Shown: piece after piece, positions 7,225 through 32,743 of the stretch | Numbering within the stretch: position 1 is the first letter of the stretch | How the letters are laid out: every line of letters begins with the position of its first letter | Assembly: GCA_028281485.1 (NCBI GenBank) | Contig: JANQJT010000342.1 | Span: 1 to 43,863, forward strand | Length of the DNA: 43,863 bases | Source: Phycisphaeraceae bacterium | Lineage (GTDB): Bacteria > Planctomycetota > Phycisphaerae > Phycisphaerales > Zrk34 | Reading direction: 5' to 3' | Made by a program: the position numbers and the translations under genes | Notes under the pieces: generated by a model | The model's database searches: none | The model's input: only the letters and a program-made list of their open reading frames with translations | What the model was told of the DNA's origin: nothing

Positions 7225-7302
7225 TCCTTCAAATCGAACCCGCCCGGGGCGTCAGTCGGCGTACAATACCCAAGCCGCCGGGTTATTTGTGAAGGGAACG
7301 TG

Positions 7303-16834: not shown

Positions 16835-18850
16835 ATGGTTCACGATTACGCCAAGAACTTGATCAACGCCGGTGGCGGAGCCGCGGATTCAACCCGAAAA
16901 GTCAACTCAGAAATCCTCGCGGTCTTGCTCGGCGGCCTGCTTCTGGTCACCGCCGCCATCGCCTACCTCGTCTTCCCGCCGCACCAGATCGTCCCCGACG
17001 AAGGCACGGCCAACCAACACGCCCAGACGATCGCCATGATCGCGGCCCTGCTGCTCGGCGTCCCGCTGGTCTGGCAGGCCGTTCGCGACCTGTGGGTCGG
17101 CCACATGCGCATGAACGAGTTGGCGGCCCTCGCGGTCACCGCCGCGTTCGCCAACGGCCAATACCTCGAGGCCGGCGCCATCGCCTTCTTCATGATCATT
17201 ACCTCCCTGATCGAGCACCGTACCGCGCTGGGCGCCCGCAAGAGCATCGAGGCCCTGGTTCGCATCACACCCACGCGCGCTCACCTGCTCTCAGGTGACG
17301 GCGAGGAAACAGAGGTCGAAGCCAAAGACCTCAAGCCCGGCGACATCGTCCGCGTCCGCCCCGGCGACAACATCCCCGGCGACGGTCGAGTGGTCGGCGG
17401 CGTATCCACCGTGAATCAGGCCAACATCACCGGTGAATCTCTGCCGGTCGACAAGGCCGAGGGCGACGAGGTGTTCGGCGGCACGATCAACGATTCCGGC
17501 GTGATGGAGATCGAGATCACCAAGGCCGGCGAAGACACCACGCTCGGTCGCGTCAAGGACCTCATCCTCCAGGCCGAGCGCACCCGCACACCCATCAGCC
17601 GACTCATCGACCGCTACGCACACTGGTACACGCCCGTCATCCTGCTGATCATCACAGCCGTGTACATCATCAAACGCGATTTGGACGTGGCCATCTCCAT
17701 GCTCATCATCGCGTGCCCGTGCGCGTTCATTCTCGCCGTGCCCACCGCGATGGTTGCCGCGCTCAGCAGCGCCGCCCGGCTCGGTGTGCTGGTCAAAGAC
17801 GTGGCCACGCTCGAAACCGCGCGCAATCTCACCGCCATCGTCTTCGACAAGACCGGTACGCTCACCACCGGCAAGCTTTCGGTCACCCGGCTCAACCCCG
17901 TCGACGGCGTCGAGGGTGGCGATCTGCTGCTGGCCGCGGCCAGCGTGGAACAGAACTCTCGACACCCGGTCGCCCGCGCGATCGTCGAGGTCGCCCGTCG
18001 CGCCCGATTGGACCTGGCCGAACCCTCGGATTTCGAAGAGGTGTCCGGTCGCGGCGTGCGCGGCTCGGTCAACGGACAAGAAGTCCTCGTCGGTCGTGCC
18101 ACGTGGATCGCCGAACGCGGCATCGACACCTCCGTCCTGGACGAGTCCGAAGCCGAAGGGCTCAGCCTGCTCTACGTCTCGCGCAACGGCAAGCTGCTCG
18201 GTTGGGTCGGCCTGGAAGACAAGTCGCGTGTCGGCGCCGCCGATGCGATGGATCGACTCCGCGAGGACGACCAGATCCGCAAGCTCGTGATGGTCACCGG
18301 TGACCGCTGGTCGGTTGCGCGTCGCGTGGCCGGCGAGATGCACTGCACCGATGTGCAGGCCGAGGTTCTGCCGGGCCAGAAACTGGAGATCGTCGACGAC
18401 CTGAAGAGTCAGGGTCACACCGTCGCGGTCGTCGGTGACGGCGTGAACGACGCGCCGGCGCTGGCCGCGGGCAACATCTCGATCGCGATGGGCGCCGCGG
18501 GCAGCGACGTGGCGATCAACTCCGCCTCGATCGCGCTGATGAACAACAACCTCAACCGCATCCCCTTCCTGGTCGAGCTCAGTCGCGACGCGATCACCGT
18601 GGTGAGGCAGAACCTCATCTTCGCGATGTTGTACATCGTGGTCTTTGAGATCATCGCGGGCTACAACCTGCTCCCGCCGGTGTTGGCGGTGCTGTTCCAC
18701 ACCTTCGGTTCGGTGTTAGTGGTGTTCAACTCCGCTCGCCTGGTGCGCAAGGGCGAGGTCCTGGAGAACACCGAGTCGACCGTTGCGCCGATTCGAGAGA
18801 GCGACACGACCCGCGCCGCACCCGCGGCGGGGATTCAACCGGTATCGTGA
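16835..18850 (+). CDS. heavy-metal translocating P1B-type ATPase (CPC type, no N-terminal HMA domain)
   Basis: TGESLPV, transmembrane CPC (IIACPCAFILAVP), DKTGTLT, SRHPVARAI (HP motif), MVTGD and GDGVNDAPAL. No CxxC metal-binding domain precedes the first TM. Confidence 0.9.
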   Translation: MVHDYAKNLINAGGGAADSTRKVNSEILAVLLGGLLLVTAAIAYLVFPPHQIVPDEGTANQHAQTIAMIAALLLGVPLVWQAVRDLWVGHMRMNELAALAVTAAFANGQYLEAGAIAFFMIITSLIEHRTALGARKSIEALVRITPTRAHLLSGDGEETEVEAKDLKPGDIVRVRPGDNIPGDGRVVGGVSTVNQANITGESLPVDKAEGDEVFGGTINDSGVMEIEITKAGEDTTLGRVKDLILQAERTRTPISRLIDRYAHWYTPVILLIITAVYIIKRDLDVAISMLIIACPCAFILAVPTAMVAALSSAARLGVLVKDVATLETARNLTAIVFDKTGTLTTGKLSVTRLNPVDGVEGGDLLLAAASVEQNSRHPVARAIVEVARRARLDLAEPSDFEEVSGRGVRGSVNGQEVLVGRATWIAERGIDTSVLDESEAEGLSLLYVSRNGKLLGWVGLEDKSRVGAADAMDRLREDDQIRKLVMVTGDRWSVARRVAGEMHCTDVQAEVLPGQKLEIVDDLKSQGHTVAVVGDGVNDAPALAAGNISIAMGAAGSDVAINSASIALMNNNLNRIPFLVELSRDAITVVRQNLIFAMLYIVVFEIIAGYNLLPPVLAVLFHTFGSVLVVFNSARLVRKGEVLENTESTVAPIRESDTTRAAPAAGIQPVS

Positions 18851-18915
18851 TGAACGAGATTGACCGCATTATCCAGGGCCGGGGGGGCGACCCCGCTACG
18901 CCGTCACGCGACGGC

Positions 18916-19923
18916 TCAGCCCGTCTCGCGCGTCTGGAACAGCGCCACGGCGCCGGCCAGCAGCGCACAGACGAACAACGCCGTGTAACCCGTTGCCAGA
19001 AGGACATAGGTGCCGCTGATAACGCTGTTCTGCGTCAGCGCGTCGGTCATGTAGAGCTGGTTGATGTTCGGCACGACGTTGTAGGCGATGGCGGCGAAGG
19101 CGTTGTTGTCAGCCAGACGACCGAACAGCGCATCGCTGGTCGTGCCCAGCGCGAGCGTGATCGTGCACACCATCAGCGTCATCACCTGCCCCAGCCGTGT
19201 GGACGCGGCGATCGCCACGGCGCAGATGATCCAGCCGATCTGAAACAGCAATCCCAGCGCGATAAACAACTGCGACAGCGACTTGCGCTCGTCGGAGTAG
19301 TTGGTGAACCTGGGATCGAAAAACTCGGTGGTGATCGACTGGAACTCCCAGTTCTTGTTGATCATCAGCACCATGACATACGCCGCGGCCAACGCACAGG
19401 CCAGCAGCGTGATGAACGTCGAGTTGAACACCCACCGGTAGAAGAAGTTGCACCACACCGCCACGCCGCCGGCCAGCAGGAACGCCGACACGCCGAAGAC
19501 CACCACCGGCCAGTCGATCGGGTCGGAGGCCGCGGACAAGACCTTCTGCCGCACCGTCAGCAGAAACACCAGCGACCAGATGAACATCGCCAGCGAGACG
19601 GCCGCGGCCACGCCGAGGTACTTGCTGAGGATGAAGGTCGGCCGACCGATCGGCTTGGAGATCACGGTGAGCACCGTTTTGTTTTGAATCTCCCGCGCCA
19701 GCACGCCACTGGCCAGCAGCGAGCCGAGCACCATGCCGCAGAGCATGATCATGCTCATACCGATGTCGATCATCAGCTTTGTGTCGTCGGTAAAGGTGTA
19801 CCCCGAGATCTGCAGATTGAGCACCAGCGTCAGCCCGCCGACGATGGTCAGCACGACGAAGATCGGCTGGCGGATCGACTCGGTGAAGGTGTTTCGCGTG
19901 ATGGTGTAGATCGGGCCAAACAT
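18916..19923 (-). CDS. ABC-2 family permease, with no adjacent ATPase on its strand
   Basis: MFGPIYTITRNTFTESIRQPIF start, about 6-7 hydrophobic spans, and the motif LTVISKPIGRPTFILSKYLG shared with the permeases at 1315 and 25712. Start set at ATG 19923. Confidence 0.75.
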   Translation of the reverse strand: MFGPIYTITRNTFTESIRQPIFVVLTIVGGLTLVLNLQISGYTFTDDTKLMIDIGMSMIMLCGMVLGSLLASGVLAREIQNKTVLTVISKPIGRPTFILSKYLGVAAAVSLAMFIWSLVFLLTVRQKVLSAASDPIDWPVVVFGVSAFLLAGGVAVWCNFFYRWVFNSTFITLLACALAAAYVMVLMINKNWEFQSITTEFFDPRFTNYSDERKSLSQLFIALGLLFQIGWIICAVAIAASTRLGQVMTLMVCTITLALGTTSDALFGRLADNNAFAAIAYNVVPNINQLYMTDALTQNSVISGTYVLLATGYTALFVCALLAGAVALFQTRETG

Positions 19924-19981
19924 GGCGGGTGGGTCTCTCGGTGCGGTCTGATGACGACAGGTTTTAAGCCGAACACGTGGC

Positions 19982-20005
19982 CGCGGCAAATCGGCCGCGT
20001 TTTAT
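19982..20005 (+). promoter_or_regulatory. terminator-like GC hairpin plus T-run in the 5' region of the SPFH cluster
   Basis: CGCGGC-aaatcg-GCCGCG followed by TTTTAT, about 65 nt upstream of the ATG at 20070. It lies in a divergent intergenic region where no upstream plus-strand gene needs terminating. Confidence 0.3.
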
Positions 20006-20069
20006 CCCTTAGCAATCATACGCCGCACGGCCCTCGTCGGGTTCGCGCGATTTCAGGTGAGCGACAAGC

Positions 20070-22160
20070 ATGAGTCAGGATCAACACACGTTTCAAAGGG
20101 CGGTCAGCGCCTCGCTATTGGGGCTGGCGATCCAGCTGGCCGTCAGCGGGATGCTGCTGCTGTTGGGGCTTCGGCTGGACAGCGCGCTGGTCACGATCGC
20201 CATGTTCCACGCGATCGGCGGCACGCTGCTCTGGGTCGCACTGGCCGTGGTGTACCAGCAGCACAAGCTCGAGCGGATCGAAGCCCTCGAGGCCGACGAG
20301 CTGGCCAAACGCCACGGCACCGACAGCTCGATTTTCTCAACCAGCGCCGAGGACCTCTCGGTCGCACGGCGCAGGCTCGGACGCCTGCAGAAGTGGGCCC
20401 TTCCCGTTGTGAGCTTCGTCACGGCGGGCTTCCTCGTCGGCATCGGCATCTGGCAGTTCGTCGCGCGATTCGACCTGCTGTCGGCCAAGCCCATGATGAG
20501 CGACCAGCTCGATCACGACCCCAAGCTCGACAGCATCGCCGGCGCCGACGCGTTCGGCAACGAAGGCGTGCTGTTGGCGCTGTTCGGCGGCGTGGCGTTC
20601 GTCATGTTCATCGTCAGCCGCTACGTCGCGGGCATGGCGAAGGTCAAAGAGTGGCAGATGCTGCGCGGCGGGGCGGGTTACCTCATGGGCGTCTGCCTCG
20701 TGTGTGCGATGCTCGCGCTGGGCTACGGCCTGCTGCTGCTGCCGTCCCCGGTCTCCATCGTGCTGACCTACATGGTCGCGATCGTGCCGGCGTTCATGGC
20801 GCTGATCGGCTTGGAGATGTTGCTGAACCTGGTGCTGGACGTGTACCGGCCGCGCAAGGTCGGCGAGCTGCCCCGGCCCGCGTTCGACAGCCGCCTGCTC
20901 AGTTTCCTGACCAGCCCCGAGTCGATCGCCCGATCGATCAACGACGCGATCAATTACCAGTTCGGTTTCGAGATCACCCACAGCTGGTTCTGGCAGCTGT
21001 TCACACGGGCGCTGCCCGCGCTGGTGCTGTTCAGCGGCGCGGTGCTGATGAGCATGTCCAGCCTGGTGTTCGTCGACGACGGTGACCAGGCCGTGATTAC
21101 GAGCTTCGGTCAACTCGACCAGCGCGTGCTCGAGCCCGGTGTTCACGTCAAGGCGCCGTGGCCGTTTGCCTCCGCCCAGAGCTACACGGTGGGGCGGGTC
21201 CAAAGCGTCTCCATCGGGTCCGACATCGTGATGATACCCGGCGAGGCCATCCTCTGGGACAACAAACACTCCGAGACCGAGCCGATCCACCTGATCGTTG
21301 CGCCGCTGGAAACAACGGTCGGCGAGCAGGACCCCGCAGATGAGAGCGATGGCAACGGGACAACGCGAGCCGTCACGCCCTCGGTCGCGCTGATCGATAT
21401 CGAGGTCAATCTGCACTACCAGGTCAGCGACCTGATCCAGTACCTGACTCACAACGACGACCCGGTCCGCCGTCTCGAGGCGCTCGGCAACGCGGAACTG
21501 TCGCGCTACCTGCTGAGCCAAACCATCGATGAGTGGCTCAGCACCTCGCGTCGTGAGACCGGCCAGGAGCTGCTGCGTCGCATCCAGGACGCGTGCGAGA
21601 AAGAAAAGCTCGGCGTCGAGGTGATCCACGTCTCGGCGGCGTCGATTCATCCACCGCGTGACGTGGCGTCGGCGTTCCACGAGGTGATCAAGGCCGAGCA
21701 TCAGCGCCAGATCCTCGTCGACGAGGCGCGGGCCACGGAGATCGCCACGCTCGTTGGCGCAGCCGGCTCGGTCGAAGAAGCCGAGGCGATCTACACCATG
21801 ATCGAATCCGCACGCTCGCTCAGCGGCGAGCGGGCCGCGGCCATGGCCGTTCAGATCGAGCGTTCGCTGACCCGCGCCGGTGGCGAGGCGGCGGTCGTAC
21901 TCGCCGAAGCCCACGGCGACCGCTGGCAACACGAAAACACGGAACTCGCCGCGGCCATGCGCTTCCCTCAAGAGCTCGCAGCCTACCGCGCCGAGCCCGG
22001 TGTCTACCGCCTGCGCGAGTTCCTCAAGGTCCTCCTCGAAGAATCACGCAAAGCCAAGGTCTACCTGATCCTCGCTGACCCCGAACGGTTCACCGTGCGA
22101 TTCAAGCTCGACGAACCCGCCTCCGCGCTGCCCGGCCTCGATCCCACAGCCACGAACTAA
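20070..22160 (+). CDS. polytopic membrane domain (about 7 TM, about 330 aa) fused to an SPFH/Band-7 (HflK-like) domain
   Basis: The first ~330 residues contain about 7 hydrophobic spans. Then LVFVDDGDQAVITSFGQLDQRVLEPGVHVKAPWPF (SPFH start), LGVEVIHVSAASIHPPRDVASAFHEVIKAEHQR and a coiled-coil tail, as in HflK/HflC. Confidence 0.75.
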   Translation: MSQDQHTFQRAVSASLLGLAIQLAVSGMLLLLGLRLDSALVTIAMFHAIGGTLLWVALAVVYQQHKLERIEALEADELAKRHGTDSSIFSTSAEDLSVARRRLGRLQKWALPVVSFVTAGFLVGIGIWQFVARFDLLSAKPMMSDQLDHDPKLDSIAGADAFGNEGVLLALFGGVAFVMFIVSRYVAGMAKVKEWQMLRGGAGYLMGVCLVCAMLALGYGLLLLPSPVSIVLTYMVAIVPAFMALIGLEMLLNLVLDVYRPRKVGELPRPAFDSRLLSFLTSPESIARSINDAINYQFGFEITHSWFWQLFTRALPALVLFSGAVLMSMSSLVFVDDGDQAVITSFGQLDQRVLEPGVHVKAPWPFASAQSYTVGRVQSVSIGSDIVMIPGEAILWDNKHSETEPIHLIVAPLETTVGEQDPADESDGNGTTRAVTPSVALIDIEVNLHYQVSDLIQYLTHNDDPVRRLEALGNAELSRYLLSQTIDEWLSTSRRETGQELLRRIQDACEKEKLGVEVIHVSAASIHPPRDVASAFHEVIKAEHQRQILVDEARATEIATLVGAAGSVEEAEAIYTMIESARSLSGERAAAMAVQIERSLTRAGGEAAVVLAEAHGDRWQHENTELAAAMRFPQELAAYRAEPGVYRLREFLKVLLEESRKAKVYLILADPERFTVRFKLDEPASALPGLDPTATN

Positions 22161-22198
22161 ACCAACCGAAAGAAACGATCAATCAAGGATATGCGGCA

Positions 22199-23155
22199 AT
22201 GAAAAAACTCTCTTCCATCCTGCTCGGCCTACTGCTCCTGCTGTTCTTCCTGGGCTACATGGTCACGTTCAGCGTGGGCCACAACCAGATCGCGGTGAAG
22301 TCCACCTTCGGCGTTGTTGGTGAGGACTCGGTCTACCACGGACGCGACGGCACGGGACGCGGCGTGCTCGGCAACCTCCACTTCAAGTGGTTCAACCCGA
22401 TCCAGAGCATCGAAACCTATTCCGCCCTCGTGCAACAGCTCGACATCGAGCCGACCCAGATCAAGCTGGACGACAACAACGTCGCCGTGGTGCAGCTGTT
22501 CGTCACGTGGCAGATCACCGACGCCAAGCTGTTTTACACCAAGCTGCGCACCGAAGACGAGGCGCGCCAGCGCCTCAAGGAACTGCTCCGCGACGCCACC
22601 AATCAGATCGCCAGCTACCGCTTCGAAGACCTGACCAACATCGACCCGGCCAAGCTGAAGATCACCGAGGCGCAGCAGAAGATCGCACAGACCCTGCAGG
22701 CCACCGCGGACGCCAGCGAGTACGGCATCACGATCCGCTCGGTCGGCATCGAGCGTTTGCTGCTGCCCTCGGAGGTGGCCAGCAAGGTGTTCGATCAGAT
22801 GAAGCAGACGCGCGAGACGCTGGCGTCGAAGGAGACCGAGGCGGGCAAGGCCGAGGCCACACAGATCCTCAGCCGCGCCGACTCGATCGCCACGCAGATC
22901 CTGAGCTTCGCCAACACGCGCGCCGAGGCCATCCGCAGCGAGGGCCGCATCGCCGTCGGCGAGAAGATCCGTGAGTTCCGCGACGATCCGGAGTTCGCCG
23001 AGTTCCTCCTGCGGCTGCAGGCCGTGCGACAGATGCTGGCCAACAACCCCACGATCATCGCCGACCCGCGCATGATCCCGTTCGACGTGTTTCCCCAGAT
23101 GAAAGAGCTGGAAGGGCGCTCCGGTATCAGCGCCTCCGATGACAACCTCGAGTAA
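22199..23155 (+). CDS. SPFH/Band-7 protein, HflC-like
   Basis: N-terminal anchor LSSILLGLLLLLFFLGYMV. Then VQLFVTWQITDAKLFY, YGITIRSVGIERLLLPSEVASKVFDQMKQTRE and an Ala/Glu-rich coiled coil. Confidence 0.8.
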   Translation: MKKLSSILLGLLLLLFFLGYMVTFSVGHNQIAVKSTFGVVGEDSVYHGRDGTGRGVLGNLHFKWFNPIQSIETYSALVQQLDIEPTQIKLDDNNVAVVQLFVTWQITDAKLFYTKLRTEDEARQRLKELLRDATNQIASYRFEDLTNIDPAKLKITEAQQKIAQTLQATADASEYGITIRSVGIERLLLPSEVASKVFDQMKQTRETLASKETEAGKAEATQILSRADSIATQILSFANTRAEAIRSEGRIAVGEKIREFRDDPEFAEFLLRLQAVRQMLANNPTIIADPRMIPFDVFPQMKELEGRSGISASDDNLE

Positions 23156-23163
23156 CGCCCACG

Positions 23164-24525
23164 ATGCAAGACCAAAACCACGAATATCACGACCCCGATC
23201 TCGACCTCGGTGATCACAGAGACCCGTTCGACGTTCAACCGACCAGGGAACTGAACATCGACGAGATGGACCCGGCCAACCGCTCGTTGGCCGAGGCGCT
23301 GCGCATCAGCTTCGGCTTCCTCAAGTGGGCCGTGGCGCTGTTGCTGATCGTGTTCATCGGCTACGGCTGCTACAACGAGATTCAGGAGGGCCAGATCGGC
23401 ATCCGCCTGCGCTTCGGTGCCGCGGTGGGCAAGCCCATTCAGGGCCCCGACGGCGATCCCAGCTACACCGTCACCGTCCTGAACCCCGGCGTGCACTTCT
23501 CCTGGCCGGAGCCGATCGACCGCATCATCGTCGTACCGACGCGCGAGCAGACGGTGACGATCGACAGCGCATTCTTCTTCCTGCTTCAGGAACGGGAATC
23601 CCACAAGCCGCTGACCGAGCGCACCTTGTTACCGGGCGGCCTCTTGCCCGGTCGCGACGGCTACCTGCTCACCGCCGACCGCAACATCGTCCACGGACAG
23701 TGGGCCGTCACCTTCCGTATCGACCCGGCCGACGCCGAGTTGTTCGCTCTCAACCTCGGCAGCGAAGACCTGACCGAGTCGCTCCAGGCCGCCCACGACA
23801 TGGTCAGCCGCGTCGCCCAGTGTGCCATCCTCCAGGTCGTCGCCACCATCACCGCCGACGACTTCATGGAGAAACAGACCGTCCCGGCCCGCTCGATCGA
23901 GATCGCCCAGCAGATGCTCGACGACATCGGCTGCGGCATCACGATCACCAACATCTCGCACGCCGAGGCACACGTCCCGCCGAGCGTGCGCGACAGCTTC
24001 AACCGCGTGACCCAGGCCAACGCCGAACGCAAACGACTCCGCGACGAGGCGATCAGCAAGGAAAACGCCAAGCTGCAGAACGTCGCGGGCGCGGGGTACC
24101 CCGTCTTGCTGGAAGCGATGCGCAACTACCAGGACGCCCGCATCCTCGGTGAGTCCGCCCGCATCGAGTCCACGCATCAACAGATCGATGCGCTGCTGAC
24201 CGACAACCAGTCCATGTCCGACAACGCCATCGGCGGCCGCGTCGCGGAGGTGATCAGCGCCGCCATCGCCGACCGCACCGGCATGGTCCAGCGCATCGAA
24301 TCCGATGTGAACAACTTCCGCGGCCACTATTCCGCCTTCGGCGACGACCCCGTCCTGCGCCGCATCAAGATGCAGCGCCTCTGGTACGACACGCTCGACG
24401 ACATCTTCGCCGAGAAACACGAGCTGTTCCGACTGCCGACCAATGCGCCTCACCTGATCATCGAGATCGGACGCAACCCCGAGATCAAGCAGCGCATCGT
24501 ACAAGACGACGAATCGGAGGAGTAA
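23164..24525 (+). CDS. SPFH/Band-7 protein, HflK-like
   Basis: Cytoplasmic N-terminus, anchor WAVALLLIVFIGYGCY, then IQEGQIGIRLRFGAAVG...LNPGVHFSWPEPIDR, LLTADRNIVHGQWAVTFRI and GITITNISHAEAHVPPSVRDSFNRVTQANAERKR. Confidence 0.8.
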   Translation: MQDQNHEYHDPDLDLGDHRDPFDVQPTRELNIDEMDPANRSLAEALRISFGFLKWAVALLLIVFIGYGCYNEIQEGQIGIRLRFGAAVGKPIQGPDGDPSYTVTVLNPGVHFSWPEPIDRIIVVPTREQTVTIDSAFFFLLQERESHKPLTERTLLPGGLLPGRDGYLLTADRNIVHGQWAVTFRIDPADAELFALNLGSEDLTESLQAAHDMVSRVAQCAILQVVATITADDFMEKQTVPARSIEIAQQMLDDIGCGITITNISHAEAHVPPSVRDSFNRVTQANAERKRLRDEAISKENAKLQNVAGAGYPVLLEAMRNYQDARILGESARIESTHQQIDALLTDNQSMSDNAIGGRVAEVISAAIADRTGMVQRIESDVNNFRGHYSAFGDDPVLRRIKMQRLWYDTLDDIFAEKHELFRLPTNAPHLIIEIGRNPEIKQRIVQDDESEE

Positions 24526-24527
24526 GC

Positions 24528-25715
24528 ATGGTCAGCCAGCAACCGGTGATCCAGACGTTCGGCCTGACCAAGGTCTTCAAGGACTTCTGGATGCGCCCGC
24601 GCATCCGGGCCGTCGATCATCTCGACCTCACCGTCGAGCCGCATCAGGTGTTCGGCCTGCTCGGGCCCAACGGCTCGGGCAAGAGCACCACGATCAAGAT
24701 CCTGCTCGGCCTGCTGTTCCCCACGCGCGGCAAGGCCGCCGTATTCGGTCGTCTGCCCAGCGAGGTCGTCACCAAACAGCGCATCGGCTACCTCCCCGAA
24801 GAGTCCTACCTCTACCGCTACCTCAACGCGCGCGAGACGCTCGACTACTACGGCCGCATCTTCCACATCGACCGACACACGCGCGTCAAACGCATCGACA
24901 TGCTCCTGGAGATGGTCGGTCTCGACGCCGTGCAACGACGCCCCGTCGGTGAGTATTCCAAGGGCATGCAGCGCCGCATCGGTCTGGCCCAGGCGCTGAT
25001 CAACGACCCCGAGCTGCTCATCCTCGACGAACCGACCACCGGCCTCGATCCCATCGGCACACGACAGATCAAGGACCTCATCCTCCACCTCAAGGAGCGC
25101 GGCAAGACGGTGCTTCTGTCCAGTCACCTGCTGGCCGATGTCGAGGACGTGTGTGACCGCGTCACCATTCTCTACGGCGGCAAGAAGCGGGCCGAGGGAA
25201 CGGTCGACGAGTTGTTGGAAGTGGAAGACTCACGCGTGATCGAAACCGATGCGCTCAAGCAAGAAACGATCGACAAGATCGAACGGCTCATCCAGGAAGA
25301 AGAGGGCGGCGCGATCCGTCGCGTCGAGCGTCCGCGTCAGAAACTCGAGGCGTTGTTTCTCGATATCGTGCACGCGGCTCAGGACGAGGGCGCCGCAACC
25401 AGCGGCGCGGTGGCCGGCGGAGCCGTTGCCGAGTTCCTCGCACGCGACGCACACATGCCCGAACAGGTCGACGGCGACGCGCTCATCGACCGGCTCACGC
25501 GCGTCGAACCGGAAGCCCCGGCGCTATCGCCCCCTGTCCAGTCGGCCGAGCCGATCAAGCCGACCGGGCCCGATACCGACGTGCTCGAAGGACTGACCCG
25601 AAGCGAACCTGTCGATTCCGCGCCCAAGCCCGAGCAGAAAGAAGAACCGCAGCCCAAGCGCGACATGGATCGTGGTGTGATCGATGACCTGATGGGTGGA
25701 GGCGGCGCGTCGTGA
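24528..25715 (+). CDS. ABC transporter ATP-binding protein (paralogue of 338-1318) with a P/E-rich C-terminal tail
   Basis: GPNGSGKSTT, YSKGMQRRIGLAQA, LLILDEPTTGLDP and SSHLL. It ends ...GGGGAS with a GTGA overlap into the permease, mirroring ...ENGGAS/ATGA at 1315. Confidence 0.9.
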   Translation: MVSQQPVIQTFGLTKVFKDFWMRPRIRAVDHLDLTVEPHQVFGLLGPNGSGKSTTIKILLGLLFPTRGKAAVFGRLPSEVVTKQRIGYLPEESYLYRYLNARETLDYYGRIFHIDRHTRVKRIDMLLEMVGLDAVQRRPVGEYSKGMQRRIGLAQALINDPELLILDEPTTGLDPIGTRQIKDLILHLKERGKTVLLSSHLLADVEDVCDRVTILYGGKKRAEGTVDELLEVEDSRVIETDALKQETIDKIERLIQEEEGGAIRRVERPRQKLEALFLDIVHAAQDEGAATSGAVAGGAVAEFLARDAHMPEQVDGDALIDRLTRVEPEAPALSPPVQSAEPIKPTGPDTDVLEGLTRSEPVDSAPKPEQKEEPQPKRDMDRGVIDDLMGGGGAS

Positions 25716-27514
25716 GCAAGCGAGGCTCCCTAACCTGGGAAAAGCGACCCGGCCTGCACGCGGCGGTCATCACGACCACCTTCACGGTCGTTGCGTACTT
25801 TTTGATCAGCCGACTCGAGACCATGGGCGACGGCGCCGGTCGCGCGGTTCTCGGCGCGATGGCGCTTGTCCTATTCGCAATGGGCGTGTGGATGCTGCGG
25901 CGATGCAACCGATCGGATTGGGGCTTGCTTCAGACGATCGGACTGTTTTTGTCTGCCTTTATGGTCCTGCTCGGCGTGGATTGTTTCCTGGGCGCTGCTT
26001 TCGACACGATGCTGATGAAGACACGCTGGGGCGCGGTGATCGGTCTCAGCCTGGTCTTGTCCGTCGGGTTTCTGATCGGTTACGGCTTGTTGCAAGTCAC
26101 GCTGTCCTTGCCGTGGCGACCATTGGGCGTGGCACGCGCGATCATCGCCGAAGCGATGGCCTACCGCGTCGTCGTAGGGGTGGTTGGGGCGCTGTTTCTC
26201 GGAGTCGTGGCGATCCCCCTCATGATCGGCCAGACCGAGTACAACACGCTCGAAGACATACCCACGCTCTACGATCGGATGCGAAAGTACCTGTCGTTTT
26301 CGTTCATGTTCGTCTCGGCGATGCTGTCGCTGATGACGGTGGTGCTCAGCTGCTGGTCGCTCAGCAACGAGGTCGACCAGCGATACGTCTACACGACGCT
26401 GACCAAGCCGATATCGCGGGGCGGCTACCTGCTGGGTAAGTGGCTGGGTGTGATGCTGCTCAACGGCCTGCTCGTGCTGGTCGTCGGCATCGCGATGTAT
26501 GGCTTCACCGTCTTCTATCTCGCCAAGATGGACCCGATCCACGCGCTAGACGAGAACGCGGTCAGCAAACAACTGCTGACCGCACGCATCGCCTCCACCG
26601 CCCAGCCCCCCGAGGAATTAGAGAAGTTGGCTGATGATGAACTCGAACGCATCCGCGTGGAGTTCGGTGATCGCTACATCGATGAACGCGGCGGCGACGC
26701 GGTTTTCCGTGAGGAAATCCTTGGGCGCCTGCTCGGCGAGTGGCGCAGCGTCGCGCCCTACGGCCGGGAGAACTATCGTCGCGTCTACAAGTTTACCGGG
26801 CTCGACACGGAAAACCGCAGCGACGAGTTCAACGCTCAGATCCAGTACACGCTACGCGCAGGCAGCTCCGTGCCCAAAGGCCAGGCGCGCGTCGGTTGGA
26901 CGGTCAACGGCTCGCCCATCACAGAGGTCGACGGCATCGAAGTCCCGCTGCGCATCCGACAGACCCTGCCGTTTCAGTCCAGCCGCATCAACGACGACGG
27001 CACGGTACTGCTCGAGCTGTTCAACCTGACCCCGGGTTCGTCGCTATACTTCAGCGGATTCGACAACCTGCAGGTCATGCACGAGGCCGACGGCTTTTCA
27101 GGAAACTTCGCACGCGCGATGATGATCGTCTGGATCAAGCTCATGTTCTTTGCCGCGCTGGGCCTGACCATGTCGACGTTTCTTAATTTCTACGTGTCGA
27201 TCCTCGGCTCCCTGCTGGTGCTCATCGCCGCGTCGAGCGGCAGCTACATCCTCGAGGCGGCCAGCCACTACGGCATCGGGCCCGATGCGCTGTTGATCGA
27301 GCAAGCGTTGCACTACATCGCCGTGACCTTTACATGGCCGCTGCAGCAGTACAGCAGCTTCGAACCGGGCAAGCACATCGTCGACGGACTGTACATCTCA
27401 TGGGGCCAATTGGGCCGATGCGTGCTGGTGCTGGGTGTGATCTGGACGGGCCTCGCGGGACTCATCGGATGGGGCATTTTCGCCCGGCGTGAGCTGGCGC
27501 GTGTGCAGGTGTAA
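25712..27514 (+). CDS. oversized ABC-2 family permease (extra N-terminal TMs plus an inserted soluble domain of about 215 aa)
   Basis: GTG start overlapping the upstream stop. IAEAMAYRVVVG and TLTKPISRGGYLLGKWLG are family motifs. A long non-hydrophobic segment (about aa 275-490) sits between TM blocks. Confidence 0.75.
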   Translation: MSKRGSLTWEKRPGLHAAVITTTFTVVAYFLISRLETMGDGAGRAVLGAMALVLFAMGVWMLRRCNRSDWGLLQTIGLFLSAFMVLLGVDCFLGAAFDTMLMKTRWGAVIGLSLVLSVGFLIGYGLLQVTLSLPWRPLGVARAIIAEAMAYRVVVGVVGALFLGVVAIPLMIGQTEYNTLEDIPTLYDRMRKYLSFSFMFVSAMLSLMTVVLSCWSLSNEVDQRYVYTTLTKPISRGGYLLGKWLGVMLLNGLLVLVVGIAMYGFTVFYLAKMDPIHALDENAVSKQLLTARIASTAQPPEELEKLADDELERIRVEFGDRYIDERGGDAVFREEILGRLLGEWRSVAPYGRENYRRVYKFTGLDTENRSDEFNAQIQYTLRAGSSVPKGQARVGWTVNGSPITEVDGIEVPLRIRQTLPFQSSRINDDGTVLLELFNLTPGSSLYFSGFDNLQVMHEADGFSGNFARAMMIVWIKLMFFAALGLTMSTFLNFYVSILGSLLVLIAASSGSYILEAASHYGIGPDALLIEQALHYIAVTFTWPLQQYSSFEPGKHIVDGLYISWGQLGRCVLVLGVIWTGLAGLIGWGIFARRELARVQV

Positions 27515-27523
27515 ACACAAGAC

Positions 27524-29815
27524 ATGAACAAGAACACGCTGATCATCCTGGTAGCCGTTTCGGTCGCGATTGCCGCGCTCGGCGCCAATTTCATGCTCAG
27601 CGGCGAGCTCAACCGACGCCGCGTCGAGGAACAACTCACCTACAACACCGATGTCCGCGAGAACCTCTCGCCACGCATGGCGCTGGCCTCGCTCATGTCC
27701 GGCTCGTTCCGTGGCGTTGCGATCAACTTCCTCTGGCAGCGCGCCAACAACCTCAAACAGGAGGGCAAGCACTTCGAGGCGGTCGACCTGGCCGAGTTCA
27801 TCTCCGAGCTGCAGCCCCGCTTCGACCAGGTCTGGGTCTTCCAGTCCTGGAACATGGCTTACAACATTTCCGTCGCCACCCACACCGACAGCGAGCGTTG
27901 GTTCTGGGTCAGTCGCGGCGTCGAACTGATCCGTGACAAGGGCCTGCGCTACAACCCCGACTCGGTCGCGCTCTATCGGCAGCTGTCGTGGACATTCTCC
28001 CACAAGATCGGCCAGGAGACCGACGAGGCCCACCGGCACTACAAGATCATGTTGGCGCTGGAGTGGAATCGTCTGCTCGGCACGCCGCCCCGACCGGGCC
28101 TGGTTGAGCAACGCGACCTCGACGGTCAGGTCGTGCTCGACGAAACGGGCCAACCGATCATGCGCCTGGCCGAAATCGAAGCCTTTGCGCCCATCGCCGC
28201 GATGGACCAGCGCTACTTCGCTATCGACGAGGTCTCCCGCGACTTGCGCAAGCAACTGGAACAGGTCATCCTCGAACGCGCACAGGACCTGGTCGTTCGC
28301 GGCATCGCCGAGTCCGAAGACCCCGTGATCGAGGCGCTGCGCAACCTGGCTTACTCGCGTCCGGGCGTGTTCGACCGCAAGGCGTCGCGCTACTGTGAGC
28401 AGTGGGCCCAGACCGAGCCTCAGATCGTCGCCAAGCTCCGCGCGATGATCGAGCAGAACAAGCCCAAGCTGGCTGCTGAGTGGATCGATACCGACCAGCG
28501 GTTTATCGAGGATTTCCCCGAGGCCACCGAGCGCGTCGGCGCGCTGCGGCTACGCGAGTTCAAATTGGACAGCGAACTGTTGCGCCGCCTCGGCATCGGT
28601 ACCGAGCGCGTCGCCGCCCAGAACCTCGGCTTCAACACCCCCAGCGAAGAAGGCGAGATCTCGCGTGACGCGTACATCGATGATTGGCTCCGTCAGACCG
28701 ACCCCGCTGTGGTGCGCGTACGCGATCAATTGATCCTGCCCTACCTGCGAGCCAAGACGCTGCGCGACACCTACAACATGTCGCCCACCTTTATGTTCGA
28801 GCTGATGGAGGGCGACTGGATGCGGGTGGCCGACAACCCGCTGACCGATCGCGACGAGTCGCAGCCCCTGCCCCTGCCGATCGATTGGCGTCACCCCGGC
28901 GCACACGGCATGTACTGGGCCTGGCGCGGTGTGTGGTTCAGCCGGCAACGCATGCACGACAGCGACGAGTTCTTCTTCGAGCTGCTCAACGTCTACCGCA
29001 TGGTCATCCACAACTCCCAGTGGCTGGCGCACAACGGCAGGCTGACATTCGACCCGATCACGCGTTACTACGATTGGCAGTCCGACCCCCGCATGATCGA
29101 GCTCTACCTCCGCCTGTACACCGGTCATACGGACTACATCGGCGGCATCTACAAGCAATCCGTCGCCGCCGAGAGCCTCGGCATCGGCCTGGAGCACTTC
29201 TACGAGTGGGCGATCGACAACTACTGGTGGTACGGCTACGAGCGCGAGGCGCGAGCGCTGTACCGCGAGTTGCAACGCGTCTTCCCCGATTCCGACATGC
29301 AACGCAAGCGGGCCGGCATGCCCATCGAACAGTTCGTGATGCGCGAGTTCTTCGACGACCTCGAAGAACCCGACCTCGCCCGTCAAAAGATCATCGGCAC
29401 GCTCTACCAATGGCTCCGCGCCGCCTACATCAACAACGAACCGGAACTCGCAGAACGGCGCCTGCGACAGGCGCAGCTCATGTACCGTCGCTACATGCAG
29501 CACTGGAGCGACACGCCGCGCATGATACTGCCGCCGTGGGACCAGCTGCTGACCGATGTGTGCTCCAGCTACATGCTCAGCCCGATCGGCCAGGGCGATG
29601 TTGCGGCGCAGATCCTATCCGGCCGCTACCAGTTCTGGCGGTACGCGCCGGTGGAGTTGAAACAGGCGATGTGGGACCGCATCCACGAGCCGCTGTACAC
29701 GATGATCCGCCGATCCGGAGCAGGCCTGAACGACCCGAGCGTGCTGTTCCCCGAGCCGCCCGGCATGGAGCAGTGGCGTGAGCAAAACCGTAACCGCGCC
29801 ACTCAGGGCAACTGA
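27524..29815 (+). CDS. hypothetical 763-aa protein, single N-terminal anchor, Trp/Tyr-rich helical body
   Basis: ATG lies 9 nt after the permease stop. Anchor LIILVAVSVAIAALGANFML. Blocks such as FLWQRANNLKQEG, VWVFQSWNMAYNISV and ERWFWVSRGVELIRDKG match no family I can name. Confidence 0.65.
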   Translation: MNKNTLIILVAVSVAIAALGANFMLSGELNRRRVEEQLTYNTDVRENLSPRMALASLMSGSFRGVAINFLWQRANNLKQEGKHFEAVDLAEFISELQPRFDQVWVFQSWNMAYNISVATHTDSERWFWVSRGVELIRDKGLRYNPDSVALYRQLSWTFSHKIGQETDEAHRHYKIMLALEWNRLLGTPPRPGLVEQRDLDGQVVLDETGQPIMRLAEIEAFAPIAAMDQRYFAIDEVSRDLRKQLEQVILERAQDLVVRGIAESEDPVIEALRNLAYSRPGVFDRKASRYCEQWAQTEPQIVAKLRAMIEQNKPKLAAEWIDTDQRFIEDFPEATERVGALRLREFKLDSELLRRLGIGTERVAAQNLGFNTPSEEGEISRDAYIDDWLRQTDPAVVRVRDQLILPYLRAKTLRDTYNMSPTFMFELMEGDWMRVADNPLTDRDESQPLPLPIDWRHPGAHGMYWAWRGVWFSRQRMHDSDEFFFELLNVYRMVIHNSQWLAHNGRLTFDPITRYYDWQSDPRMIELYLRLYTGHTDYIGGIYKQSVAAESLGIGLEHFYEWAIDNYWWYGYEREARALYRELQRVFPDSDMQRKRAGMPIEQFVMREFFDDLEEPDLARQKIIGTLYQWLRAAYINNEPELAERRLRQAQLMYRRYMQHWSDTPRMILPPWDQLLTDVCSSYMLSPIGQGDVAAQILSGRYQFWRYAPVELKQAMWDRIHEPLYTMIRRSGAGLNDPSVLFPEPPGMEQWREQNRNRATQGN

Positions 29816-29969: not shown

Positions 29970-30938
29970 ATGGCGCAGATCGATTCAACTCAGCCCCTCG
30001 GCCCGGCGCCCCCGGAACCGCCAGCCCCCACACCGCGCAATCGGTTCTCCAGCCTCTCCCTTCCCTGGATCGTCAGCATCGCCGTACACATCGCCATCGC
30101 GGTCATCGGCATGTTCGTTGTCTGGTCTTCGACCACACAGAAACCCGACAAGGTCATCGTGCCGTTGACACGTTTCACCGGCGACGTGGTCGCCGAGAAC
30201 CTAGCCGACCCACAGGACACCGAAATCGCTGTGATCCACGAACGGGTGCAAACAGCCGAACCGGTCGAGGTCGCGACAGCCGAGCCGCCGGACCTGCTCG
30301 CGATCGACAACGACGCGCCGCTGAGCGCGATCGATATCGAAGTCGCGCTTCCCCTGCCTCCGGGCACGACGACCGATCGCCCCGAGCTGTCGGTCGAGTT
30401 GTTTGGCGTCGGCGGCAACGCGCGCACCGTCGTCTTCGTGGTCGACGCGTCCGGCTCGCTGCTCGACGTGTTGCCGCAAGTCATCAACGAGCTGGCACGC
30501 TCGATCCGTCAGCTGTCGACCGAGCAACGTTTCACCGTGATCTTCTTCCAGGGCGGCCGGGTCATCCACGTGCCCGTGCCGCACGCGGGCCTGAAGCGCG
30601 CCACCGCTGACGCCAAGCGAGCCGTCATCCGATGGATCGCGCTGGACAGCGGCAACATCCGCGCCGCCGGCTCGACCAACCCGCTTATCGCGCTCGAGGC
30701 CGCGATCAAGCTCAAGCCGGAACTGATCTTTGTCATGTCCGACGACTTCCGCGGCGCGGGCGATACGCCCCAGACGCAGCGCGCGATGTTGCAACGCGTC
30801 GCCCGGGCCGTCGGCGACACCAACCTCGCAATCAACACCATCGAGTTCAACGACATCGACCGGTCCGGCGTCCTCCGTCGGATCGCCGAACGACACGGCG
30901 GAACCTACAAGCACGTGGGCGATCCGCTGCAGCGATAG
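29970..30938 (+). CDS. vWA (MIDAS) domain protein with a Pro-rich N-terminus and a TonB-like SxxxH transmembrane anchor
   Basis: PLGPAPPEPPAPTP, then the anchor LPWIVSIAVHIAIAVIGMFVV (S36-x3-H40). The MIDAS residues are complete: VVDASGS ... GSTN ... VMSDD. No TonB C-terminal domain recognisable. Confidence 0.75.
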   Translation: MAQIDSTQPLGPAPPEPPAPTPRNRFSSLSLPWIVSIAVHIAIAVIGMFVVWSSTTQKPDKVIVPLTRFTGDVVAENLADPQDTEIAVIHERVQTAEPVEVATAEPPDLLAIDNDAPLSAIDIEVALPLPPGTTTDRPELSVELFGVGGNARTVVFVVDASGSLLDVLPQVINELARSIRQLSTEQRFTVIFFQGGRVIHVPVPHAGLKRATADAKRAVIRWIALDSGNIRAAGSTNPLIALEAAIKLKPELIFVMSDDFRGAGDTPQTQRAMLQRVARAVGDTNLAINTIEFNDIDRSGVLRRIAERHGGTYKHVGDPLQR

Positions 30939-30972
30939 ACCGACACGCGCCTCGCGCGCGAAAGGAGACGAT

Positions 30973-31749
30973 ATGCGATCACGCAAGACCCGGTACGCGA
31001 CCCTCACCCTCTGCGTACTGACCGCCTGGACGGCACAGGCGCTGGCGCAGGGCGGAGCGGAACCGACCGACGCCGAACCGACCAGCTTCACCTCGATGTT
31101 CTTCTGGTCCGACTCACGCCTCGGCCTGGTGCTGATCTACCTGCTGCTGACGATGTCGGTCGCGACCGTCGGGCTGATCATCCACTACGTCCTGCAGAAC
31201 AGGCGTACCAACATCCTCTCGCCATCAGCCAAGCAGGACATCGGCTCCAGCCTCAACAGCGGGCTGTACGGCAAAGCCATCGAGATCGCCCAGCGCGACC
31301 CCAGCGTGTTCGGTCGTATCATCGGCACAGCGCTCGGTGAGTCGTCGCACGGCTACGGCGCCATGGAACGCGCGATCGAAGAATCCGGCGACGTCGCCAT
31401 CATCTCTCGCGTTCGCGCGTTGGATATCCTCAACGTCTTCGGCGCCGTCGGCCCCATGATCGGGCTCTTCGGCACCGTCTACGGCATGATCATCACCTTC
31501 CAGGCCATCGAACAGACCGGTGGCAGACCCGACGTCGGCCAACTCGCCGGCGGCATCTCCACCGCGCTGGTCACCACCTTCTGGGGCCTGCTCGTCGGCA
31601 TCCCCGCCACCGCCGCCGCCGCGCTCATCCGCAACCGAATCGAAGGTCTCGTCACCGAGGCCATGGCCGAGGCCGACGCCATGATCGGCCGCTTCCGTCC
31701 CGCCCCACAAACCGACGCCACACAGACCAGCACGGAACCCCGCGATTGA
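30973..31749 (+). CDS. exbB: MotA/TolQ/ExbB-family proton channel protein
   Basis: AAAGGAG RBS and a signal-like N-terminus. LNVFGAVGPMIGLFGTVYGMIITFQAI and GGISTALVTTFWGLLVGIPA are the family signature helices. Start set at ATG 30973, not 30730. Confidence 0.88.
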   Translation: MRSRKTRYATLTLCVLTAWTAQALAQGGAEPTDAEPTSFTSMFFWSDSRLGLVLIYLLLTMSVATVGLIIHYVLQNRRTNILSPSAKQDIGSSLNSGLYGKAIEIAQRDPSVFGRIIGTALGESSHGYGAMERAIEESGDVAIISRVRALDILNVFGAVGPMIGLFGTVYGMIITFQAIEQTGGRPDVGQLAGGISTALVTTFWGLLVGIPATAAAALIRNRIEGLVTEAMAEADAMIGRFRPAPQTDATQTSTEPRD

Positions 31750-32216
31750 TCTCCCGAAGACGCTACAGACCCGCGCGCGTGCAGACGAACATGACCTCCA
31801 TGCTCGACGTGGTCTTTCTATTGATCATCTTCTTCATCCTCGCCACCAACTTCGCTGCCAAGGACGTGCCCCGCATGGACACACCCGAACCCAACGTCAG
31901 CCTCGCCGAGCAGTGGGACAAGCCCAACGCGCGCGTGATTAATCTGTTGGCTGATCCGGCTGCGCCGGGTGAAGTCGGCGAGGTGCTCCTGCAGGGCGGT
32001 CGCGGCAGCTACCCGATGAGCGCCCAGGGCCTGGCCGACCTGACCGAGTCGCTGTATCAGATGCGACAGCGCATGCCCGCCTTGGAGATCGACGTCCGCG
32101 CCGATCGGTCGCTGCCTTACGACCGGGTCGAACCGGTGTTGGACGCGATCAAGGCCGCGGGTATCTTCCGGGTCAACCTCGTCGCTCAGCTCCAACGCGG
32201 GGGGGTGGCCCCTTGA
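31746..32216 (+). CDS. exbD: ExbD/TolR-family protein 1
   Basis: TNMTSMLDVVFLLIIFF (conserved TM Asp), then a periplasmic domain ending IFRVNLV. TTG start overlaps the exbB stop (TTGA). Confidence 0.85.
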   Translation: MISRRRYRPARVQTNMTSMLDVVFLLIIFFILATNFAAKDVPRMDTPEPNVSLAEQWDKPNARVINLLADPAAPGEVGEVLLQGGRGSYPMSAQGLADLTESLYQMRQRMPALEIDVRADRSLPYDRVEPVLDAIKAAGIFRVNLVAQLQRGGVAP

Positions 32217-32743
32217 GCACGACACCGATACACGCCGAACCCGATCGCGCAGATACAGGTCAGACCGTGCATCACCGACGCCACACCGCGCGCGATCGCG
32301 GCCTGCAACCGCTGAACCTCACCAGCATGCTCGACGTCTGCTTCCTCCTGCTCGTGTTCTTTGCGCTCACCGCGAGCTTCGCCATCGACGAGGGCGTGTT
32401 GCCGACGGAACTGCCGGACGAGGGGCGCGGCGTCGCGGTCGATGCGCCGCCGCCGGTCGAGCCGATCCGCATCGTGCTCACGCCGCAGAACACCGACGGC
32501 GTCCGGATCGAGGTGCAATCCGTCCACCAACCCGTCCCCGCCAACAGCGAGCGGCTCTACCTGATGCTCGACAGCTGGCGGTTCGATCAACAGACCGGTC
32601 AGGGCCTGTTCGACGCGAGCAATCCCGTTGTCATCCGCGTCAGCGGCGCGGTCCGATGGCAACACGTCGTCGATGTTTATAATGCGGTCCTGCGTGCGAA
32701 GTACACCAACGTCGGCATCGTCGGCAACGAGCGAGACGCGTGA
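32213..32743 (+). CDS. exbD: ExbD/TolR-family protein 2
   Basis: LNLTSMLDVCFLLLVFF with the TM Asp. TTG start overlaps the previous stop (TTGA). Confidence 0.85.
   Translation: MSTTPIHAEPDRADTGQTVHHRRHTARDRGLQPLNLTSMLDVCFLLLVFFALTASFAIDEGVLPTELPDEGRGVAVDAPPPVEPIRIVLTPQNTDGVRIEVQSVHQPVPANSERLYLMLDSWRFDQQTGQGLFDASNPVVIRVSGAVRWQHVVDVYNAVLRAKYTNVGIVGNERDA

Follow-up and report, generated by a model that had tools for sequence, protein, structure and literature searches.

A conserved inner-membrane module is described here from a 43,863-nucleotide stretch of a Phycisphaeraceae bacterium (contig JANQJT010000342.1 of assembly GCA_028281485.1; this whole stretch is referred to as the window). Six genes on its forward strand, at 20070-29815, encode three SPFH paralogues (SPFH1, SPFH2, and SPFH3), an ATP-binding cassette (ABC) ATPase, a large ABC-2 permease, and a membrane-anchored, Trp-rich α-solenoid. 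From their order and spacing these genes are predicted to form a real operon that is kept across hundreds of genomes, and they are the larger part of an eight-gene module composed of two sub-modules; the two further genes, which lie outside 20070-29815, encode a small ABC-2 permease and a P1B-type transition-metal ATPase. Sub-module A, as deduced from sequence, is the ordered SPFH trio together with an HmtA-type P1B ATPase, and it is also free-standing in Proteobacteria. Sub-module B consists of one ABC ATPase, two paralogous permeases, and the periplasmic solenoid, and in bacteria of the Planctomycetes-Verrucomicrobia-Chlamydiae (PVC) group A is nested inside B. The P1B ATPase, rather than the ABC transporter, appears to be the oldest and most deeply conserved partner of the trio. 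Most likely the trio serves the HmtA-type metal ATPase, with the periplasmic solenoid and an ABC-2 machine of NosY fold as additions made in the PVC bacteria.

A preliminary description of this DNA, made without database searches, had proposed that the six same-strand genes, with junctions of 38, 8, 2, -4 (a GTGA overlap), and 9 nt, constitute one transcription unit. The open reading frame (ORF) list and a direct reading of the junction sequences bear out the common strand and every one of these distances, including the 2 nt between the SPFH3 stop and the start codon of the ABC ATPase. The products were also named correctly: Pfam finds Band_7 in the first three and ABC_tran in the fourth; the fifth matches ABC2_membrane_2 (PF12679) weakly, a family that 27 of 27 aligned orthologues of this large permease match; and the sixth contains 26 Trp residues (3.4%). 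The coordinates are collected in Table 1. A plus-strand ORF at 18847-20073 (408 aa), which overlaps each neighbour by 4 nt and hence mimics an upstream extension of the array, was rejected as an operon member; it is a shadow ORF of Arg/Asp/His-rich nonsense composition, and the true gene at this place is that of the small permease on the minus strand.

Table 1. Genes of the module and the divergent intergenic region, in the order in which they lie in the window
Feature	Coordinates	Strand	Description
P1B-type transition-metal ATPase	16835-18850	+	671 aa; Pfam E1-E2_ATPase and Hydrolase
Small ABC-2 permease	18916-19923	-	335 aa from the ATG at 19923; divergent from SPFH1
Divergent intergenic region	19924-20069	.	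Between small permease and SPFH1
SPFH1	20070-22160	+	696 aa; polytopic N-domain, then HflK-like SPFH, coiled-coil, and C-terminal region; Band_7
SPFH2	22199-23155	+	318 aa; HflC-like; single N-terminal transmembrane helix; Band_7
SPFH3	23164-24525	+	453 aa; second HflK-like paralogue; cytoplasmic N-tail of ~45 aa, one transmembrane helix; Band_7
ABC-2-type ATPase	24528-25715	+	395 aa; low-complexity C-terminal tail; ABC_tran, E 3e-28
Large ABC-2 permease	25712-27514	+	600 aa; extra N-terminal transmembrane helices, NosY-fold core, periplasmic insert
Membrane-anchored Trp-rich α-solenoid	27524-29815	+	763 aa; TPR-like; no Pfam family

Gene order across phyla

Conservation of the gene order beyond this genome, a check that the preliminary description had proposed, is found throughout the Phycisphaerae. 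A scan of species-representative genomes located the solenoid gene in at least 595 genomes or loci, and 80 loci were kept for tblastn with the window proteins; the counts of gene order refer to the 50 of these that have at least 9 kb upstream. All six genes occur in the window order in 46 of the 50, and in 45 the small permease lies upstream as well. Two of the other loci have a gap of fitting length where one SPFH gene scores slightly under threshold, and in the last two (L010 and L066) the SPFH trio is absent. The six-gene order persists down to 25-30% protein identity, and the ABC ATPase is 55-73% identical across loci. In the complete genomes ZRK34, Poriferisphaera WC338, and CP087563, the same six genes follow in order behind a divergent small ABC-2 gene; in the latter two, the genes flanking the module are unrelated to those of the window, which shares the flanks pheS, VWA, and ExbBD with its close relatives. 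Junctions in the Phycisphaerae, estimated by homology, have medians of 36-71 nt. The small permease gene is divergent in most of these loci and co-directional in L008. In 13 of the 50 the P-type ATPase gene is found directly upstream and converges with the small permease gene; among the 13 are the window (where the small permease gene alone separates the ATPase gene from SPFH1), L170, which is the closest relative of the window, and deep branches. L083 has the P-type ATPase gene downstream instead.

The two loci without the trio, both from metagenome-assembled genomes (MAGs) of Phycisphaerae, still have the genes for the ABC ATPase, the permease, and the solenoid (L010, 5639-12145; L066, 6278-12205). 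L010 also keeps the small permease gene, which directly abuts the other three. The missing trio could be a natural loss, a variant arrangement, or a misassembly. Since the ABC-2/solenoid sub-module is present in both loci, it can stand alone.

A second lineage was reached through a search with the permease, which gave distant relatives of ~460 aa, and a metagenome scan found at least 405 contigs that belong to it. Its taxonomy is that of NCBI MAG labels alone: three proteins carry the name Verrucomicrobia/Verrucomicrobiota, and a neighbouring LeuC cluster is labelled Limisphaerales. Here the genes form one co-directional array, in the order small permease, SPFH1, SPFH2, SPFH3, P1B ATPase, ABC ATPase, permease, and a solenoid of ~505 aa, and the junctions are short, as in the Phycisphaerae. 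Among loci with enough upstream sequence, the P-type ATPase lies between the trio and the ABC ATPase in 34 of 34, the run from SPFH1-3 through the P-type ATPase to the ABC ATPase is seen in 22 of 23, and all eight genes stand in the same order in 18 of 21; the remaining 3 of the 21 are truncated upstream, and in two of them additional sequence separates the P-type ATPase gene from that of the ABC ATPase. The gene order is thus kept in all informative loci of this lineage. The SPFH and permease proteins are ~27% identical to those of the window, versus 53% for the P1B ATPase. The preliminary description had taken the ABC-2 module and the Trp-rich protein to be the only candidate clients of the SPFH proteins; this view does not survive the finding that a P1B ATPase, encoded just upstream in the window, travels with the trio across phyla.

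This association extends to the Proteobacteria. When SPFH1 was searched against plasmids by tblastn, the matches spanned residues 235-555, which comprise the juxtamembrane segment and the SPFH domain. Four annotated loci, from Paraburkholderia, Burkholderia, Rhizobium, and Klebsiella aerogenes, carry the same four-gene cassette: a long HflK-like protein (568-672 aa; both copies that were analysed have a polytopic N-domain), an HflC-like protein, a third SPFH protein, and a cation-translocating P-type ATPase. Gene boundaries overlap in 3 of the 4, and none of the four, which represent Alpha-, Beta-, and Gammaproteobacteria, has ABC-2 or solenoid genes. SPFH1, SPFH2, and SPFH3 of the window each find their best match in the cassette gene at the same position (Paraburkholderia and Klebsiella plasmids), so that the window trio has the order of the cassette: long HflK-like, HflC-like, third SPFH. 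It also has an adjacent P1B ATPase with the CPC motif and a His in the eighth transmembrane (TM) helix, TM8, although this gene lies upstream and not downstream of the trio. The CPC is shared by the Paraburkholderia and Klebsiella cassette ATPases, and the TM8 His is seen in the Paraburkholderia copy, the sole copy with a readable TM8 motif; the window ATPase is 34% identical to these proteins. In Paraburkholderia the cassette adjoins znuABC-like genes and genes for a GTP-binding protein and PCu(A)C. On the conjugative Burkholderia ubonensis plasmid pMSMB2035 (L173, 716-14816), transposase genes of IS5, IS110, and IS66 lie to either side of the cassette, which indicates that the quartet of trio and P-type ATPase can move as a unit.

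The studied counterpart of this quartet appears to be the PA2439-hmtA locus of Pseudomonas aeruginosa, as matched by gene names and by the published position of PA2439 as its first gene. This locus, with the genes PA2434-PA2439 and its promoter at PA2439, belongs to the Zur regulon, is bound by Zur, and is induced by zinc starvation (PMC4542158, PMC8531726). In a znuA mutant, PA2435 (HmtA) and PA2437-PA2439, which are annotated as HflC-family, HflC, and HflK-family, respectively, are up 5.6- to 14.4-fold (PMC4542158), and the PA2438 and PA2439 proteins increase under Zn depletion (PMC11761036). HmtA has been described as a Zn/Cu importer (PMC4542158 and PMC8531726, both citing Lewinson 2009). 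The role of the SPFH genes of this locus is not addressed in PMC4542158, PMC8531726, or PMC11761036. The SPFH-trio/HmtA cassette is already on record, without functional study, and what appears to be new is the PVC composite with the ABC-2/solenoid genes.

Properties of the encoded proteins

The three SPFH proteins score 50.5, 76.1, and 71.2 bits against Band_7 (PF01145; E 3e-13, 5e-21, and 1e-19), all above the Pfam gathering cutoff of 23.6, which places them in the SPFH/Band 7 superfamily. They are predicted to be HflK/C-like, and not HflK/C as defined by the NCBIfam equivalog cutoffs: with HflK (TIGR01933, cutoff 159.4) SPFH1 reaches 92.7 and SPFH3 77.4 bits, and with HflC (TIGR01932, cutoff 134.4) SPFH2 reaches 87.8 bits. 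In searches of the PDB, the SPFH1 family profile matches HflK with an E-value of 1e-37 and HflC with 2e-13, and SPFH2 matches HflC with 2e-13. When the families are compared with hhalign, SPFH1 and SPFH3 are the closer pair (E 6.5e-38), and each aligns with SPFH2 at ~1e-19 (7e-20 for SPFH3-SPFH2); consequently, the trio consists of two HflK-like proteins and one HflC-like protein. By hydropathy and a positive-inside tally, the SPFH bodies are predicted to lie on the periplasmic side of the membrane. The SPFH domains align well with HflK/HflC, and the C-terminal region, which is common to all three paralogues, aligns weakly in single-sequence mode. SPFH1 carries in addition an N-domain of ~330 aa with 6-7 extra TM helices and a basic, conserved cytoplasmic juxtamembrane segment before the anchor helix. 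(A fused ABC-2 permease was considered for this domain and rejected, with an hhalign probability of 0.2-0.3%.) HflK Arg191 has been reported to contact FtsH (PMC12048511); its placement on SPFH1 is ambiguous owing to numbering.

The ATPase encoded upstream is of the P1B (heavy-metal) type: its translation has the phosphorylation site FDKTGTLT and, in TM6, ACPCAF with its CPC, and it scores 562.5 bits against TIGR01525 (cutoff 346). It lacks an N-terminal HMA domain. A CopA-type (P1B-1) pump has YN in TM7 and MxxSS in TM8, and a ZntA-type (P1B-2) pump has a TM7 Lys and DxG in TM8. Neither signature is matched at the positions taken from alignments to CopA and ZntA, where the CopA YN is YI and the position of CopA M717 and ZntA D714 is the TM8 His, and the CopA and ZntA equivalogs score far below their cutoffs; both subgroups were therefore rejected. 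The TM8 His and the CPC are kept in every listed orthologue from both PVC lineages. The ATPases of the second lineage (L085-L168) have a His/Cys-rich N-terminal tail (e.g. HDHHHHDHDHEHGEGCGCGHDHEH) that the window ATPase does not have.

Within the NCBIfam models, the ABC ATPase is closest to the DrrA, GldA, and NodI subfamilies, all below cutoff, and it is not assigned to NosF. A gliding-motility GldAFG system was rejected, as GldA gives 192 bits against a cutoff of 402.6 and no GldG-type family is matched. The large permease was modelled with AlphaFold2 (AF2) on a 17-sequence alignment, with a predicted local distance difference test (pLDDT) score of 81. Between its core TM helices it has a periplasmic insert of ~190 aa (residues 274-465) made of helices and a β-sandwich. 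Foldseek aligns the model with NosY (probability 1.0; TM-score 0.56-0.67 on NosY length, with non-significant E-values) and with LptG at a TM-score of 0.33-0.36 normalised to LptG length. The insert resembles sandwiches of the CBM35, BcsB, and LptF/G types, again with all Foldseek E-values non-significant (>=0.02). PDB sequence searches with the large permease gave no match, and no module protein matched the LptF or LptG families in Pfam or NCBIfam. An ABC2_membrane_2 permease with a modelled NosY-like fold, together with an ABC_tran ATPase, would make this an ABC-2 system of the NosFY kind. The small permease has weak Pfam matches to ABC2_membrane_5 and ABC2_membrane_2, and its family aligns with that of the large permease from end to end (hhalign probability 98.4%, E 8e-15); the two are predicted to be paralogues. 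PADLOC, which was used to look for a known anti-phage defence system, gave generic ABC-ATPase matches to the ATPase and no match for the SPFH proteins, the permeases, the solenoid, or the P-type ATPase, so that such an identity was rejected.

The 763-aa protein was called an orphan in the preliminary description, and this must be revised. A word-indexed search gave at least 418 homologues, for which every taxon label given is Planctomycetota or Phycisphaerae, and an exhaustive profile search gave a family of 3,082 clusters (50% identity), of which 1,064 match at E<=1e-30. The family has no name and no Pfam or NCBIfam model; weak TPR_14 matches occur in 15 of 38 members. The AF2 model (pLDDT 89, pTM 0.88) is all-alpha behind one TM helix; the solenoid is probably periplasmic. 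PDB sequence searches gave no match. The membrane-proximal residues 46-190 are the most conserved, with 42-51% identity to the second-lineage proteins versus ~23% elsewhere, and contain the near-invariant block GxFRG...LW.R...WNMxxNISV...RW.W...NP...W...K.G..DD..YK. The residues kept across phyla are W, R, N, D, K, and Y, and not His or Cys. A His-based metal site, DWRHPxxH, was considered and rejected, as its His is not conserved in the Verrucomicrobiota-labelled proteins. Foldseek with the solenoid model gave only generic TPR solenoids at TM-scores of 0.1-0.15 and no specific structural relative, so that neither an enzyme nor a known adaptor can be assigned.

In the divergent intergenic region, a terminator scan picked out a six-bp GC hairpin (19982-19999, plus strand; CGCGGC...GCCGCG followed by TTTTAT), ~70 nt 5' of the SPFH1 start, that looks like a terminator or attenuator. 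Rfam gave no match in the whole window, so no riboswitch or leader accounts for this hairpin. A AATCATACG motif lies at 20014-20022. A (T)ATCATACG-type core, or a 7-mer from this core, is found on the plus strand in 12 of 45 Phycisphaerae intergenic regions, the window included (others are, e.g., L033, L038, L030, L032, and L019), at 8-345 nt upstream of SPFH1, and the AATCATACG/ATCATACG-type motif may be a -10 promoter element.

Several other genes lie near the module. Downstream of it, a VWA protein, MotA/ExbB, two ExbD proteins, and a 907-aa TPR protein are encoded co-directionally at 29970-35463 (plus strand). This VWA/ExbBD cluster adjoins the module in closer relatives only (L001, L005, L008, and L170) and is therefore probably a separate ExbBD-type module. 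In L170 a TonB-dependent receptor is also present upstream. Elsewhere in the window, a second ABC ATPase is paired with an ABC2_membrane_2/4 permease (233-2451, plus strand, genes overlapping) at a position unrelated to the module, and a 1,240-aa protein with a sub-threshold match to DUF748 is encoded at 7300-11022 (plus strand).

A proposed transition-metal task and its alternatives

How might the parts of the module work together? The three SPFH proteins would co-assemble into a hetero-oligomeric ring or cage of the HflK/HflC style on the periplasmic face of the membrane; this is proposed by analogy with HflK/C, whose 24 subunits alternate in a periplasmic cage (PMC12048511). Enclosed by the SPFH assembly would be a patch of membrane with the P-type ATPase in it and, in PVC bacteria, also the ABC-2/solenoid machine. 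Both ATP-driven machines would then act together on a transition metal of the Zn, Cu, or Co class at the interface between periplasm and membrane, a task that is suggested by analogy with the Zur-controlled Pseudomonas locus. The P-type ATPase would carry the ion across the membrane, with the direction of transport inferred, and the ABC-2 system would be a NosFY-like mechanotransducer or an exporter that drives the solenoid or the solenoid's ligand. This reading as a whole, an SPFH assembly that fences a metal ATPase and the PVC ABC-2/solenoid machine for a transition-metal task, is given even weight for and against on the comparative analysis. Its stricter form, in which the cage is FtsH-independent and client-specific and encloses the HmtA-type ATPase (with the NosFY-like machine and solenoid in PVC bacteria) in a sealed micro-compartment of periplasm and membrane for the acquisition or hand-over of a transition metal, is tentative and rather doubtful.

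Several observations count against a metal task shared by trio and transporters. There is no direct evidence of SPFH contact with either transporter, and an FtsH encoded elsewhere could be the client of the trio. In 37 of the 50 Phycisphaerae loci, no P-type ATPase is seen in the 0-1.4 kb visible upstream; Poriferisphaera and CP087563 have none within 10 kb; and L010 and L066 have the ABC-2/solenoid unit with no trio beside it. All three SPFH proteins fall under the NCBIfam HflK/HflC cutoffs, and SPFH3 matches HflK in the PDB weakly. No palindrome or operator of the Zur/Fur type was found in 45 orthologous divergent intergenic regions, where only the -10-like TATCATACG emerged. In addition, the conserved solenoid residues and the sandwich of the permease insert point to a glycan or lipid as ligand rather than a metal.

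The client of the trio is where the alternatives diverge most. If the trio is this lineage's equivalent of HflK/HflC, with FtsH encoded elsewhere, then the transporters would be substrates of FtsH or be co-regulated by stress, with no dedicated cage. Another P-type ATPase, MgtA of Salmonella, is turned over in an FtsH-dependent way, which fits such a role, and the shared stress could be zinc limitation, FtsH being a zinc protease. Among solved structures, SPFH1 and SPFH2 are indeed closest to HflK and HflC. The preliminary description had remarked on the lack of an FtsH or NfeD partner, and this holds: neither gene was found in the window, and no FtsH signature occurs among 6,183 ORFs from ~165 loci, within ~10 kb of the module. 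However, adjacency does not define a complex with FtsH: in E. coli ftsH lies at a locus separate from hflK/hflC, and in gamma- and betaproteobacteria these two genes belong to the hfq-hflX-hflK-hflC operon (PMC13086221), so a missing ftsH neighbour is weak evidence and proves little. Proteomics in P. aeruginosa ties PA2438/PA2439 to the Zn-metalloprotease HflB (PMC11761036). On the other hand, the trio does not reach the equivalog cutoffs for HflK/HflC, its paralogues number three and are all obligatory, and HflK has no counterpart of the polytopic N-domain. For P. aeruginosa, seven more SPFH proteins are listed beside the canonical HflK and HflC (PMC13086221), and the hmtA trio would be an additional set if PA2437-PA2439, as we assume, are among the seven. 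An FtsH-centred role is the main rival, possible but not favoured, on a par with the sealed micro-compartment.

Less probable again is a module centred on sub-module B, in which the ABC-2/solenoid unit acts on a glycan or lipid of the envelope in the manner of LptFG or Wzm, the trio organises a microdomain, and the P-type ATPase has a secondary task such as the supply or removal of a divalent cation. The resemblance of the permease sandwich to CBM35, BcsB, and LptF/G, its placement between core TM helices as in LptF/G, the conserved Trp/Asn/Arg/Asp/Tyr-rich patch of the solenoid with no His or Cys conserved across phyla, the DrrA, GldA, and NodI exporter subfamilies nearest to the ATPase, and the trio-less L010 and L066 would all suit this. 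But all the Foldseek E-values are non-significant, the best match to the permease core is NosY and not LptG, and the P-type ATPase stands inside the second-lineage operon in all 34 loci. Moreover, because the proteobacterial trio and P-type ATPase occur without ABC genes, the trio is not built for the ABC machine; this alternative is unlikely. Adjacency as inherited synteny without functional coupling is disfavoured and very improbable, even though most of the evidence comes from two related phyla (PVC) and close relatives of the window also share its flanks. The module stays intact while its flanks change and persists through inversions and relocations of its members, junctions of 0-70 nt or overlaps span the boundary between SPFH and transporter genes in three arrangements, and the core quartet recurs on proteobacterial plasmids, with one copy flanked by insertion sequences. 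Since the linkage survives several rearrangements, function is favoured over inherited synteny.

These findings bear on what bacterial SPFH cages do beyond HflK/C-FtsH, an open question. A distinct HflK/C-like set of three paralogues has a P1B metal ATPase as its conserved genomic partner across at least 3 phyla, and in two PVC phyla this pairing is joined by an ABC-2 machine and by a solenoid family that is large and unnamed. This offers a client hypothesis that can be tested in a tractable organism, namely that PA2437-PA2439 control HmtA in P. aeruginosa, and a possible explanation for the presence of HflK/C-like genes in the Zur regulon. It also marks out a nearly universal, uncharacterised envelope module of the Phycisphaerae. 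Should the trio build a client-specific, FtsH-independent cage around the transporters, primary-active transporters would for the first time take the place of a protease as clients of a bacterial SPFH cage, and the SPFH paradigm would widen from protease scaffolds to transport micro-compartments.

Likeness to known systems

The preliminary description held that an SPFH scaffold dedicated to an ABC machine was not a described system. In the literature searched, no SPFH-ABC cluster was found described, nor was a PVC composite with a NosY-fold heteropair and this solenoid family, but the idea of a scaffold dedicated to the ABC machine overlooks the more deeply conserved partner, the P1B ATPase.

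Three known systems share parts of the module's design. Like HflK/HflC of E. coli, the SPFH paralogues are encoded side by side, with SPFH1 and SPFH3 HflK-like and SPFH2 HflC-like, a predicted N-in topology with a periplasmic body, and a weak alignment to the C-terminal region that caps the cage. Unlike HflK/HflC, there are three paralogues here instead of two, SPFH1 has its ~330-aa polytopic N-domain, and the neighbours are transporters, with no FtsH gene nearby in the loci scanned. The NosDFY system, the mechanotransducer of CuZ assembly, resembles the module in its permease, since the core best matches NosY and belongs to the same Pfam family, ABC2_membrane_2; in the large periplasmic partner encoded beside the transporter; and in a link to metal handling. 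However, the periplasmic partner is an α-solenoid and not the NosD β-helix (no NosD, NosL, or NosZ was found in the window or in annotated neighbour loci), and the permeases are a heteropair of paralogues, one of which has a β-sandwich insert. LptB2FG shares the paralogous permeases, a periplasmic β-sandwich between core TM helices, and a weak structural match to LptG, but the module has no LptF/LptG family match and no LptC or LptA genes alongside its permeases, and NosY is the better match.

The hmtA locus of P. aeruginosa also has three consecutive SPFH genes and a P1B ATPase, in an order that is that of the second lineage and of the plasmid cassettes. In contrast to the window, the Pseudomonas and plasmid versions have neither ABC-2 genes nor a solenoid. 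Their ATPase gene follows the trio, whereas that of the window precedes it and converges with the small permease gene. Only for Pseudomonas have control by Zur and transport in the import direction been shown.

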